From NCBI RefSeq assembly GCF_009931435.1, contig NZ_CP043415.1: 64,000 nucleotides of DNA; one strand, written 5' to 3'. The position numbers are program-made. This stretch comes from Escherichia coli (GTDB taxonomy: Bacteria; Pseudomonadota; Gammaproteobacteria; Enterobacterales; Enterobacteriaceae). Position 1 is the first letter of the stretch. Each line of letters starts with the position of its first letter. Shown in pieces: positions 58,001 to 64,000 of this stretch.

Positions 58001-61000
58001 GCATAGTGCACTGGGTTATCGCTCGCCACGGGAATATCTACGGCAGCAAGCCAGTAATGGGTTAAGTGATAACAGGTGTCTGGAAATATAGGGGCAAATC
58101 CAGTGTCCTTGACCCACGATATTCAGACTGTCGTTGTATCTTAAGTTGACGTTACCCGCTGACTTTTATGTGTTGAAAAACATCCATTTTAGATGTTTTT
58201 CAATCTTTTGATTAGAAATACATATCGTTAACATGCAAATCAATAGACAGCATGAATATTGATGGTTGCACCACAGGCCTGAGCATATTTTGTTAAAGTT
58301 TTCATACTGGCTCCTAAAGGATTACTTTCCAAGCGACTGATGGCTGACGGGCGTAACCCCATTCGTTCAGCCAGAGCAGACTTTGTTAACCCCGCTTTTT
58401 CTCTCATTTCGTACAACATTTCTACCATCTCCAGTTCCTTATCGGCATCTTCATACCCTTTGACAGCTTCTGGAGTATTAAGCAGTTTTTGCTTTACCTG
58501 ACTGAACGGAACACCTTTTACTTTCATTATTTCATCTCCTTCAGGCGCATCCTAGCGATTTCAATAGCTTTCGTTGGTGTCTTTTGCGTCTTTTTCACAA
58601 ATGCATGCAGCAGATAGATTTCGTTTCCAGTTGCATAAGCGTACAGTGTCCTTGCGATATTTTTATCCCCAACTCTCAGTTCAAAAAGTCCTCCGCCAAT
58701 TACACGACTATGAGGCATTTTCATTTTGTTACCTTCTTGTTCCAGTCGTTCAATCAGCCTAGCCATGCGACCACGCAGATTATCTGGTAATTCAATCAAC
58801 TCATTCAGTGCGGCCGGGTGAGTAATTACATTAAACATATTATAGCCTCCGAAAGGATAAAATACACCAGAACAGGAAAATTGCGCAAATATCAAATTTC
58901 ACTGATAAATGAAATACATGTTAAGTACAGTTTTGATGCCGCATCAGCGGCATGGAAGGCGGCATTCCGTTGTTGCATATGGCACAGGAGTAAAACCGCC
59001 GAAGCCCGGCGTCAGCCGGTACTGATTGATAGATTTCACCTTACCCATCTCCAGCCCTGCTAAGCCATACCCGTTTTCAGCCATGATAGAGCTTCTGTGC
59101 GCGGTCGGAGTGGTCCCGACGAGGGTTTACCCGAAGTCGGGGCGTATCTCCGCGTTAGCGGGCCGTCAGGGCCGCTTACGAGCGTGTACTCAATACTTCC
59201 AGCCAGAAGACTGACAGCGATGATAATGTAGTTACAACATTCATAATTGAAAGCGACTCTGTTCCGGCCCTTCGGGCCGGGGCGGCGGCGCTTATTAATT
59301 ATGAGGAGGGGCTTTGTGGTTTCAGTTCTGCGCGGAACCGGGGTTTTTCCGGAGTCTATGTTTGAATGTTGTAACTAAATTGGCTCCAATCGGGGCCCGC
59401 CGCTTGCGGTGGGAGGTGCATATCTGTCTGTCCACAGGACAGGCAGTGAATAGGTTTTTTTTTAAATGAATGTAATTAGGTAGTTTAAAGGAGATATAAA
59501 CAGGTGTTTAAAAGATACATTGCACCCTGTAAGGCTGACGGCTGGCGCTTTATGACATGAACGGTTGTAACCTTATGGGGAAGTCCCTTGCAGTTAAATG
59601 TGGATAAGCAAAATCCCCCGTCTGTGAGGCGTGTTTTGTATCAAAAACAGGGGGGACCGGATGCACCAGAAGGTGGATGATGAGGTTGTTTTTTGTATGT
59701 GGTGCTGATTTTTTGTGCACTGGCGGGCTTCAGGCGTGCGAATGCCTCCGGCGCGTGCCGGATTATTCTGATGAGGTCACTTTCAGGGGGAAGCTGTGGC
59801 CAGCCGGCTGTAATTACGGTTACGTGACAGAATCATGCGCTCCTTCACACGACGCTCCACTTCGCGTTTTACCGCCTCACGACTGGCAGTGAAACGTCCT
59901 TCCGCGATTTCACGCGTCAGCTGCCGTTTCACCAGGGTGACAATATCCTGACGTTCCCTGTTCGCATCACGACGCGCACGGGCACGTTTTATTCCACGGG
60001 ACTTAAGCTCTGTCTGGTAACTGCGGAAACGCTCACGCACAAAACGCCAGGCTTTCGCTATCAGTTCATCCATACCCAGGGTATCCAGCCCCTGCTTTTT
60101 GCGCTGTCTGTTTTCCCATTCAACACGACTGCGGCGCGCAGCTGCCACTGCATCCTCAGACACATCAAGGGCAGCAAACAGAGCCGGTGTGAACGTGATG
60201 TCGGTCGGAATGTAGCACCCGATAAGCGGGTCATATTCCGTCTGGTAGGTAATCAGTCCCAGCTCTGACAGGAACGTCAGGGCCCGGGTGGCACGGGTGA
60301 TGGAGAGTTTTCCTGCACCGGACTCTGTCGCCAGTCCGCACTCAATGGCCAGCGTGGTGATGGAGCACTGGACGCGGTTGGCCAGCGGATCATAGTGAAA
60401 ACAGAGCCCCTGCAGCAGCGCATCAATGGCCCGGCGACGCAGTACCGGTGGCATGCGCCGACGCAGACCACGCGAACGGGCATGCGCCACATGAATGGCG
60501 AAATCAAAACGGGAGGAGAAGCCCACCGCCTTTTCCATCAGTTTTTCGCAGAACTTCAGCGTTCCGGCACCTTTACGGGGTGTAAACACCGGATTCGGGT
60601 TCTTTACCTGGCGGTAATACGTTTGTTGAAGATCAGTCACACCATCCTGCACTTACAATGCGCAGAAGGAGTGAGCACAGAAAGAAGTCTTGAACTTTTC
60701 CGGGCATATAACTATACTCCCCGCATAGCTGAATTGTTGGCTATGCGGTTTTATGGGGCCCCGGTAATCTTCTCGTCGCCAAACATAGAAAGATTATCGG
60801 GGTTTTTGCTTTTCTGGCTCCTGTACATCCACATCAGAACCAGTTCCCTGCCACCTTATGGCGTGGCCAGCCATAAAATTCCTTAAACGATCAGCAATCT
60901 ATCACGCACACCAGAAACAGGCAAGAATGTGATGTCGCTACATTTCAGTTAGCTAAAAGCACTCTTCTGCTTTATCAGTTCGGCAATCATCTCAGCCTGA

Positions 61001-64000
61001 GTAACACCCTCAGCTTCACACATCTCCTGCAATTGCGCTTTTAACGCAGCAGGAATAAACACTCTGAGTTCTTTATGTGTGGCTCGTTTTCTTGCCAGGG
61101 ATGCCTGCTGACGTTCTGCAAGCGTCAGAGGATTACCTTTTCTGTATGCTCGCTTTGTACCTGATGAGGAAGTCACTGCATTTTCTGTCTGCGACATCTC
61201 GCCTCCTCAATTCTCAAACAGGGATCGTTTCGCAGAGGATACTACAGTTTTTTGAAATCAGCGACTTGAAAGTTGTGACGATGATCTGTGTTGGCGCACA
61301 AATCATGTCTGATTACGACCGTTTAATGTGATTTTGATAATGAAATGACTGAAAAGATGGAAATGCCTTAACCTGTGTGCCGGCCCCGGGCGGGACCGGC
61401 TGTTTCTGGCATGTCGGGTGTCTGCCCCTGAAATACCTCACACTTCCGGAAAGCGGGGACTTCCCTCCCCGCCCGGCAGCTTACTTCCGTGCTTCGTAGG
61501 CCAGAGTTACCTGCACCACTGTATTTCCCCTGTGAATATTCAGCTCACATAACCGTTCCCTGAATATCAGTGAAAAACACAACACCGTGGCGCACACGGC
61601 GAGCAACCCGATAAGGGCATATTTCGTCATAAACTTTGACCTCTCTGCAAGGAAGAGGCTACAATCAGTAGTGTTAAGGTACTTCATGCAGGCCTCACGA
61701 GTTAATGGATTAACAAGTGGGGTCTTCGCATTTCTGGTACCTGCGTCTTGCCTGAACCAGAAAGGCTCAGACACCCGCCGCGATAATACCACATTCCCTG
61801 TTACTGACCATTCCCTCCATTTCCCGCTTTTCACTACAGAAAAGCCGGGGGCGGGGAAAACTTGCTTTTTCCCGTCCCCGGGGTTGGACAACTGAGCAAC
61901 GCGAAGGCGTCAGTGGATTTTTATGATCCTTCCAAACTCTGCTTCCATTTTTTTCATATCCTGTTCTCTTACTGCGACTATCAGTTGTTTTCCTGATTTT
62001 CGTGCCACTCTGGCAAACTGCATGACGGCAGATTCATTATTCAAATCAGACCATCCTGTACAATTAAAAATAATAATATGCTCACTGGCGTTCAGCGCAT
62101 TCCTGATAAAAATAACAGCATAATCATTTAATGTTCTGTCAGAACAACTGTAAATCTGGCTGAAATCATAATACTTATAATCAGTGATATTCAGTTTATT
62201 TAAAAAGCTATCAACTTCAGAAGCTGATTCCCCCACTATAAGAACATTATGATTAGACGATGTGATTAATTCTGATACTGCCTGATAGTTCATTTGTTCA
62301 CCTTTCATTAACAGAGAAATAAGTTAATAATGTAATATGCTTCATGCTTTTAAATATCGCATTTCAATGAGAACTCAATAGCCACAGAAATATCATTATT
62401 TCCGTGAGCGCCATACCCAGGGCGGAACAGGAGCGCTGTCTGCCCACAGACCACGTTTCTGCTGTCGTACTTCTCCCTGCAGGACAGGAAGAACAGGATC
62501 GGTGTTGTACTGCTCATAAACCCATGCATCGCCTGCACGGACCATAAACTGATTAACATTCATTCCGTCTGGTGCATAAACCTGCCCGAGAATACGACCA
62601 TAATGATCTCGCTGAAAATATGTGACAGTAACCGTTTTTCCCGCAACCAGAGATTTCATTATTTTTTCAGACCACCGTCCATATTCCTGTTTCTTTTCAG
62701 GTGCATCAATATTAACAAGACGGACACGCACCGGATGCTGAGATAACATGACGTCAATGGTATCGCCATCCAGAACACGCACGACCCGTCCATGAATATC
62801 AGCAGAAAATACCTGACATGAAAAAACAAATAATACCACTGGTATATATTTCTTCATTTTACTCTCCGTCACTGATTACTTTTCGTGATTGCATGAATTC
62901 CATGCCGGGATGAATAATGGCTCACGTATCACGCAAAAAATAAACCGTTGAGTTGTGATCAATTCAACAAAATAAGATGAGGTGACTTAATACACATATG
63001 GCTATGTGTTACTAAAAACGCTGGTCAGCCAGCCTGACCAGACACATAAGAAACAACGTCTCATGCATTATTCAGCCTCCTGATACCTGGAGTAACGGAG
63101 GCTGCTTTTTCTGTCACATATTTCCCGTGAAGGCGTTACCGGTTTCCGTGGGTAACATGTGACGGAGATTATATTTTTAATCTCCGTGTATTCATCATAC
63201 CTGCTCTTGCTGACAGGATAACTGTGTTATATCGCAGGCTACCGGATGTGGCGCTGAATATAACGGTCATAGATAAGTCATACATGCCCTGCTCAGGGGA
63301 TTAGCGATAAGACGGACCGGGAGAGTCATCTCCCGGTTTTTCTTTATCCTGCCGCGAATACAGCCCGGCTGTCTGTCAGATTCACCGGATAACCCTACTG
63401 TTATGCATGCCACTGTCACCTCCTGCTTCTTGAAATTCATCACATTTTTTATCCCTGCTGGCTTACCCGGGATGTGAAATATGTTAATTCTGTGATGTCC
63501 GTTTGAAAGACAGGGCAACTCCTTCTTACACCACTATAATAATAATAACGATCTGCCATATAAGTCTGATCCCCCGGAGCTCCGCGACGGGGGTTATTTT
63601 TATCGGCACTTACACCGACATGCAGATGCCCTCTTCAGAGCAAAATCCCGCCATGCTTCACAGGGTGCCAGCCGGGCCGCATTCTGCCAGACCTCTGCCG
63701 CTTCCCTGAAAAAGCCACGAATCTCCTGACGGACGGCATGACGCCCCTCGCGCTGATAGCGATAAATACTGCTGTGTTCAGATAATCCACTGGATACAGC
63801 CATTTTTTATCCCTCCTCTTGACCCGACACCCGGATTATGTCAGAAACATTATGAAACATCCCTGAACGGTTGGATGTTTTTCTCCATCAAAACTCTGGA
63901 TGTCTGTTTTCCCGATTTTTTTCGCTGTTGCCCTCTGTCATACAGAGGGCGCTTTTCTTATTCTGCCAGGATCGCCCGCAGCTCATCCTTGATCCGGTTC

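Follow-up and report, generated by a model that had tools for sequence, protein, structure and literature searches.

An IncFII-family replication region on a Vir-like Escherichia coli plasmid, flanked by a type II toxin-antitoxin pair of the N15 gp49-gp48 kind and by the srnB killer gene of F

Introduction

A 64,000-nucleotide (nt) stretch of Escherichia coli DNA (contig NZ_CP043415.1 of RefSeq assembly GCF_009931435.1; hereafter the window) carries an IncFII-family replicon that is bracketed by two addiction modules, a toxin-first type II toxin-antitoxin (TA) pair and a Hok-family type I gene, srnB. The question raised by this locus is what kind of region it is and, in particular, how the type II pair came to lie between the replication origin and a fragment of the insertion sequence (IS) IS2, and whether it might have arrived with the IS debris, as an initial annotation of the window had suggested.

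Here, we show that the region is an ordinary IncFII-family plasmid replication region with a known type II pair on one side and the F srnB killer gene on the other. It is already known: every gene in it is named in public annotation, the GenBank and RefSeq records of near-identical plasmids carry identical gene calls for it, and nothing in it falls outside known kinds. All the features listed in the initial annotation were found on the minus strand, essentially where they had been placed. The TA cassette is located at the origin side, with copB, the CopA RNA, tap, repA1 and oriR in the middle and the Hok-family locus at the copB side. Taken together, the region is very probably the standard maintenance core of a Vir-like F-type virulence plasmid (F17, cnf2, cdt-III), to which two post-segregational-killing (PSK) cassettes have been added at the edges of the replicon, with the type II pair in place beside oriR before the IS2 landed.

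Two cassettes at the edges of a conserved replicon block

Comparison of the window with R100 by blastn gives homology over 58936-61334, which picks up again at 61839. As a result, the two modules, each a clean indel cassette, are found exactly at the two edges of the shared, conserved block. The identities of the parts, their arrangement, the limits of the cassettes, their conservation and the purifying selection acting on them are observed directly in the comparisons given below.

58238..58914, minus strand: type II cassette of the N15 gp49-gp48 (Tad-Ata) type, with control region, toxin and antitoxin; 677 bp, delimited by homology ends
58936..61334, minus strand: basic IncFII-family replicon block (oriR, repA1, tap, copA, copB), 90% identity to R100 (blastn, R100 annotation)
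61335..61838, minus strand: srnB locus, an indel cassette relative to R100 (504-bp insertion, with 31 bp in its place in R100)

That the replicon belongs to the IncFII family, as had been claimed, was borne out by its identity to R100, by the match of the repA1 product to the NCBIfam incFII_RepA equivalog TIGR03474 (579.8 bits, cut-off 446.9) and to PRK13750 (618 bits), by the Rfam match of CopA and by the match of CopB to PF10723. The replicon of R100 (NR1) has the same copB-copA-tap-repA1-oriR order and also carries a type II pair on the origin-distal side. In R100, however, the place of gp49/gp48 is taken by tir and then pemI-pemK, a MazF-type pair in antitoxin-first order that lies about 0.9 kb past the end of the shared block. 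R100 also lacks srnB, and its CopA loop and CopB alleles differ from those of the window. In R1, the type II pair parD is analogous to R100 pemIK in its position by oriR.

The type II pair is a GP49-domain toxin with an XRE antitoxin

The coding and control parts of the type II cassette are as follows.

58527..58838, minus strand: toxin gene, 103 amino acids (aa), GP49-domain member of the RelE/ParE superfamily, homologue of N15 gp49 (89% aa identity; Pfam PF05973, E = 7.6e-28; tblastn to N15 gene 49)
58240..58527, minus strand: antitoxin gene, 95 aa, XRE/Cro-type helix-turn-helix (HTH) protein, homologue of N15 gp48 (86% aa identity; HTH_3, E = 5.4e-12; PHROG 1373, E = 1.2e-34)
58839..58914, minus strand: presumed TA promoter/operator region, also kept in N15 and an E. 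coli phage-plasmid

The two genes form an operon in reverse orientation, in which the toxin gene (58838 to 58527) is followed by the antitoxin gene (58527 to 58240) with an overlap of 1 nt (TAATG). The Pfam family Gp49 (PF05973, COG4679), which is named after N15 gp49, matches the toxin over positions 2-90 of the 90 in the profile. Together with the HTH_3 match and the overlap, this establishes the left-hand module as a toxin-first RelE/ParE-superfamily toxin with an XRE antitoxin, as initially described. The homology to RelE/ParE or HigB on which that description depended is present, since in addition to PF05973 the toxin matches HigB of S. pneumoniae (6af3, E = 8.6e-6) and, less well, HigB1 of M. 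tuberculosis (E = 0.024) among PDB sequences, where the antitoxin matches HigA2, HigA and HipB.

The label 'HigBA-like', on the other hand, holds in a broad sense only. The toxin is a GP49-domain (Tad/N15 gp49) protein: at E <= 0.01, Gp49 is the only Pfam toxin family that it matches, and among the Pfam families at this threshold it is not a member of canonical HigB (Rts1, E. coli or V. cholerae type). The COG4679/DUF891/'Tad' family has been placed within the RelE superfamily (PMC2701414). GP49-domain toxins are always found in toxin-first operons with XRE antitoxins, and they have been filed as HigB, yet are little like the HigB of Rts1, E. coli or V. cholerae (PMC5906591).

The closest characterised relative is the gp49-gp48 locus of N15 (Tad-Ata, or 'GP49-domain HigBA'), which has been recognised as a TA pair (PMC3581621). 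The two loci share the toxin-first order, the 1-nt overlap, the lengths of 103 and 95 aa, the upstream inverted repeat and Shine-Dalgarno (SD) sequence, and identical cassette ends. They differ in setting, as the N15 locus is found between gp47 and gp50 of a linear phage-plasmid whereas the window copy is found beside oriR on a conjugative IncF virulence plasmid, and their nt identity is 77%. Upstream of the toxin gene, the window has an inverted repeat TTTCAT-N6-GTGAAA (58914-58897), a palindrome TTGCGCAA (58888-58881) and the SD sequence GGAGG. Because these upstream palindromes are conserved, the region may well serve as promoter and operator of the pair.

Both TA genes are under strong purifying selection. 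In comparisons with the copies in pCoo, in the S. dysenteriae pINV and in phage-plasmids, the ratio of nonsynonymous to synonymous divergence (dN/dS) is ~0.02-0.04 for the antitoxin and ~0.03-0.06 for the toxin.

The type II cassette very probably adjoined oriR before the IS2 landed

The window places the type II module between oriR and an IS2 fragment, just as the initial annotation had it, with the cassette at 58238-58914 and the right end of the IS2 at 58102. Two features make up its left-hand neighbourhood.

About 57081..58102, plus strand: IS2 fragment, the 3' ~1.0 kb of the element, comprising a truncated orfA, orfB and the right inverted repeat, whose last bases are ...GGGGCAAATCCA (58102) (identity to IS2 copies)
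58104..58163, no strand assigned: orphan 60-bp sequence directly next to the IS2 end (present at 80-98% identity in ~500 plasmids, where IS3-family transposase annotations often cover or adjoin it)

The IS2 fragment, which has rve domains (Pfam), is 97-99.9% identical to copies annotated as 'IS3-like element IS2 family transposase'. RefSeq marks it as a pseudogene ('IS3 family transposase, frameshifted, missing N-terminus'), and its left end is truncated. The 60-bp piece is probably a terminal fragment of another IS3-family element; in pVir68 it abuts the 3' fragment of an IS66-family transposase and not IS2.

Did the type II module come along with the IS2 or with other IS debris on its left? 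The proximity that prompted this suggestion is real: the IS2 end is only 136 bp from the stop codon of the antitoxin gene, with the IS3-family-associated 60-bp piece in between, and further left the sequence is a patchwork of IS66, IS110 and IS3-family fragments. The ends of the cassette, however, tell otherwise. Homology begins and ends at 58238 and 58914, the first of which lies 2 bases beyond the antitoxin stop codon and the second 76 bases before the toxin start, in N15 (77% nt identity), an E. coli N15-like phage-plasmid (82%), Klebsiella phage-plasmids (73%) and a Raoultella megaplasmid (71%), so that the same limits recur in N15 and N15-like phage-plasmids with no IS nearby. The IS2 fragment and the spacer at 58104-58237 are absent from the pCoo-type plasmids and phage-plasmids that have the same cassette.

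The other edge of the cassette leads to the same answer. Only 21 bases separate the cassette from 58936, where the homology to R100 stops, and at least 48 plasmids from E. coli, E. marmotae and E. albertii, among them pCoo, pVir68 and plasmids of enterotoxigenic E. coli (ETEC), carry the cassette, oriR and the 3' end of repA1 as one continuous stretch. The left flanks of these plasmids differ: def/lpxM/virK in pCoo, Tn1000 followed by an IS66-family fragment in pVir68, a ParE/Phd pair in pSalMiami, and IS2 in the window. Between the window and pCoo, synonymous divergence (dS) is about 0.24-0.27 for the TA genes and 0.12 for repA1, values of the same order that would fit a long co-residence of the pair with the replicon. 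Given the differing left flanks, the shared junction between cassette and oriR and the comparable dS, arrival with IS debris is not supported; it is largely refuted, and we regard it as extremely improbable. The IS2 and the 60-bp piece are later neighbours of the cassette. The best explanation of these observations is that the type II cassette has been exchanged between N15-like phage-plasmids and IncF replicons and that it adjoined oriR before the IS2 landed.

The sharing of this cassette with phage-plasmids raises another reading, namely that the gp49/gp48 copy serves mainly in conflict with N15-like phage-plasmids or phages, by anti-addiction and cross-immunity or by abortive infection, and not in stabilising its own plasmid. 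Cross-neutralisation is plausible at the level of similarity seen: the toxin shares 89% of its residues with N15 gp49 and 91% with its counterpart in the E. coli phage-plasmid, and the antitoxin shares 86% with N15 gp48 and 90% with its counterpart there. Both proteins also fall in phage protein families. PADLOC, which returned weak or generic matches only, matched the toxin weakly to the defence-candidate model NsnC (E = 1.3e-7), and the SXT homologue discussed below did not stabilise its element. Against this, plain plasmid addiction is in keeping with a pair that lies at the edge of the replicon, that is accompanied by a second PSK locus and that has an analogue in pemIK of R100, and the two roles are not mutually exclusive. 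We therefore hold a mainly conflict-related role to be unlikely. The same applies to the more specific proposal that the cassette is a unit with fixed ends (58238/58914) that shuttles between N15-like phage-plasmids and the IncF oriR edge and whose plasmid copy acts as a cross-reacting anti-addiction partner, which we think rather improbable; if it were true, carriage of a Vir- or ETEC-type plasmid would alter the loss or establishment of N15-like prophages, and vice versa. More generally, a type II pair common to this plasmid and to N15-like phage-plasmids could allow cross-talk between the two kinds of element.

A near-complete cassette is found in 111 of 5,426 complete E. coli genomes, in which 348 of the 351 matching places, complete or partial, are on plasmids. 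Some observations on individual copies may be added here. A 237-bp antitoxin remnant corresponding to 58317-58553 (~70 codons from the start of the antitoxin gene plus the final 26 nt of the toxin gene) sits alone, truncated by an IS91-family element, on plasmids of about 220 of these 5,426 genomes, many of them avian or porcine ColV-type. In pVir68 (6140-6738), the TA genes are 100% identical at the nt level to those of the window (58240-58838), while the adjoining repA1 is 94% identical and copB is another allele, so that the replicon region is a recombination mosaic. In pSalMiami (ParE/Phd at 2827-3365) and the E. marmotae plasmid NZ_CP056698.1 (GNAT/DUF1778), extra type II pairs are stacked at the same origin-distal side. 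This suggests that the origin-distal side is a local accumulation site for addiction modules; given pemIK in R100 and these further pairs, addiction genes seem to settle preferentially at the flanks of the basic replicon.

The type I module is the srnB locus of F

On the copB side, homology to R100 stops at 61334 and resumes over 61839-61913; with pCoo, which also lacks the srnB insertion, it stops at 61409 and resumes at 61839. The insertion contains the following features.

61481..61630, minus strand: srnB toxin open reading frame (ORF), 49 aa (translation; Pfam HOK_GEF PF01848, E = 5.2e-9, 36 bits, cut-off 22)
61481..61687, minus strand: mok-like frame (srnB'), 68-aa product with an in-frame 19-codon N-terminal extension (translation; RefSeq calls the 68-aa form)
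61395..61776, minus strand: predicted srnB mRNA (promoter-like site, Rfam start at 61776, fold)
61672..61740, plus strand: predicted SrnC (Sok-like) antisense RNA (promoter-like site and hairpin fold; complementary to the srnB' start region)

The locus has 3 mismatches to that of F over ~418 nt (61804 to about 61380; 99% identity), from the promoter -35 to the 3' stem-loop, one of them synonymous in the ORF. The SrnB protein is identical in the two, and the same protein call, WP_001312851.1, is made in F and pVir68. In F, where the IncFII-type replicon is RepFIC, the locus likewise sits upstream of copB. Unlike in F, where the RepFIC repA1 is interrupted by Tn1000, the replicon of the window is intact, and the sequence upstream of 61805 differs. 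Together with PF01848 and the in-frame start at 61687, the identity to F supports the claim of an srnB-type Hok gene with a mok-like frame. The coordinates first given for the gene, 61481-61633, were right at 61481 and need correction at the start, since the ATG is at 61630 and 61633 falls in a TTT codon. The NCBIfam models HokA and Hok score below their cut-offs for SrnB.

ATG 61687 lies 57 nt upstream of srnB in the same frame, which is the sole open frame upstream, and a mok-type coupling of srnB translation to this start is putative, by analogy with the hok family. In hokC/mokC/sokC of K-12, mok is likewise a 57-nt in-frame extension of hok with a shared stop codon, and sokC lies on the opposite strand over the mok start; K-12 hokC differs in being chromosomal and in belonging to a different Hok cluster. 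The objection that a mok frame is expected to be out of frame with its hok was dropped, as the K-12 mokC/hokC annotation shows an in-frame mok.

For the srnB mRNA, a 5' end at about 61776 is expected from a promoter-like -10/-35 at 61783-61810 whose -10 is TG-extended. The nine bases of this end, GGGUGUCUG (61776-61768), pair with CAGACACCC at 61419-61427 in a fold with a minimum free energy of -152 kcal/mol (z = -4.7). The predicted fold-back of the 5' end on the 3' end would be a long-range pairing of the tac/fbi type, as known for the hok family. The Rfam 'sok' model RF01794 matches the srnB mRNA leader on the sense strand (99 bits, gathering score 59), and this match marks the srnB locus, not the antisense RNA itself. 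As for the antisense RNA, the initial annotation had looked for its promoter around 61640-61760, and the promoter scan did yield one: TTGACC-18-TACAAT at 61636-61665 on the plus strand, which points into the leader and, with 10 of 12 consensus positions matched, outranks every other promoter-like site of the 4-kb scan. The 74-nt stretch downstream of it forms a hairpin (-30 kcal/mol, z = -5.3) and covers the start at 61687, and SrnC is thus expected to be a transcript that covers the mok start.

It could still be argued that either module, or both, has become an inert relic and simply travels with the replicon. Decayed copies of the type II cassette do exist, namely the 237-bp antitoxin remnant in roughly 220 complete E. 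coli genomes and copies interrupted by IS, and the cassette copy in pSalMiami is shorter and unannotated. In the window, however, both TA ORFs are intact, full-length relative to N15 and under strong purifying selection, and srnB is 3 nt from the F locus, with its promoters and RNA pairings kept. We thus find the relic reading very unlikely and keep to that of two maintained killing cassettes.

The IncFII-family replicon and its control allele

Between the two modules, the replicon block is made up of the following features.

59783..60640, minus strand: repA1, replication initiator, 285 aa from GTG 60640 (NCBIfam TIGR03474; public annotation)
60633..60707, minus strand: tap, RepA leader peptide, overlapping the repA1 start (annotation mapped over from near-identical plasmids)
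60725..60811, plus strand: CopA antisense RNA (Rfam RF00042, 85.2 bits, gathering score 60, E = 3e-15)
60949..61197, minus strand: copB (repA2), transcriptional repressor, 82 aa, a distinct allele (PF10723, E = 1.8e-34)
59599..59607, minus strand: DnaA box TTATCCACA in oriR (pattern search; inside the R100-homologous ori region)
59231..59378: inverted Ter-like pair, ATGAATGTTGTAACTAC on the minus strand at 59231-59247 and TGAATGTTGTAACTAA on the plus strand at 59363-59378 (pattern search)

CopB also matches NCBIfam PRK13702 (138 bits, cut-off 87). CopA is located opposite the repA leader, and a promoter-like site, TTGAAC-17-TATACT (60690-60718), is found directly upstream of its Rfam match. 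The ori region, with oriR downstream of repA1, is 90% identical to that of R100, and the Ter-like pair, which we take by the known Ter consensus to be putative Tus-binding Ter sites, is kept in R100, pCoo and pVir68.

When the replicons of the window, R100, F (RepFIC), pVir68 and pCoo are compared, the differences cluster in CopB and in the loop and upper stem of CopA. Judged from these sequences, the incompatibility allele appears not to be of the R100 type and the replicon has a control allele of its own, because the CopA loop and CopB both differ. The MOB-suite replicon labels in PLSDB, which give IncFIC for a near-identical plasmid, were dropped as a basis for typing, since R100 itself is labelled IncFIA there. 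In some records, a 46-aa 'hypothetical protein' (WP_001315588.1) is called at 58944-59084 on the minus strand. It falls in a stretch beyond oriR that is non-coding and homologous to R100, matches no family and is probably a spurious call.

How the region may maintain the plasmid

By analogy with the characterised systems, CopB would repress the repA promoter, and CopA antisense RNA would block translation of the tap leader and hence that of repA1. RepA1 would then act in cis on the adjacent oriR with its DnaA box and Ter pair. In the gp49-gp48 operon, translation of the two genes, toxin first, would be coupled. The RelE-like toxin presumably cleaves mRNA in a ribosome-dependent manner, whereas the XRE-HTH antitoxin, a labile protein, presumably counteracts it and represses the operon through the upstream inverted repeat and palindrome. 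Plasmid-free segregants would be killed by the stable toxin protein once the antitoxin has decayed. At the other edge, srnB would give a stable mRNA that folds back on itself and can be translated only by way of the in-frame mok-like start. Short-lived SrnC, made from the strong promoter inside the locus, would mask this start, and plasmid-free segregants would be killed when the stable srnB mRNA is translated after the decay of SrnC.

Toxicity, neutralisation, autoregulation and plasmid stabilisation are thus to be expected from what characterised homologues do. According to the title by which Dziewit et al. 2007 is cited in PMC2701414 and PMC5906591, toxicity, neutralisation and plasmid stabilisation have reportedly been described for the homologues in N15 and pAMI2.

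Several points weigh against reading the region as a maintenance core with two active killing cassettes. A search of NCBIfam returned no model for the toxin. Its AlphaFold model, built from an alignment of 7 sequences, has a predicted local distance difference test (pLDDT) score of 60, and the best Foldseek match of the model is S. pneumoniae HigB 6af4 with E = 0.096, with none below 0.001. With a model of such low confidence, it is the sequence profiles only that speak for the RelE fold. The consensus promoter scan of 4 kb gave no passing site upstream of the toxin gene, and for both SrnC and the srnB mRNA the ends given are predicted ones. We found no experiments on this particular TA allele. 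For the family member s044-s045 of SXT, deletion did not destabilise SXT (PMC2654960), so that stabilisation is not to be assumed for every context.

The Vir-type plasmid keeps its IncFII-family replicon intact, along with two killing modules that are independent of each other, and this would help to explain its stable carriage in bovine E. coli. Beyond its correct annotation, the region is of little importance.

Other observations in the window

The wider sequence is that of the plasmid type named above. Positions 1-56000 correspond to a Vir-type virulence plasmid with F17 fimbriae (~9.5-14.5 kb), CNF2 (~47-50 kb), CDT-III cdtABC (~53.9-56.1 kb) and an hlyC fragment. The window is nearly identical to CP057923.1, with offsets that shift between blocks (0, +324, -5011) and thus point to IS-sized indels relative to that record.

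Next to the srnB locus, at 61910-62308 on the minus strand, a 132-aa ORF (127 aa in RefSeq) lies in a segment of 35% G+C, and searches of Pfam, NCBIfam and PHROG gave no match for it. It stands where R100 has hha and a DUF2726 gene. Further on, at 63034-63158 on the plus strand, the Rfam family AS-pc02 ('antisense to pHK01_099') is matched with 47.6 bits (gathering score 40), upstream of the region of a thermonuclease-family gene.

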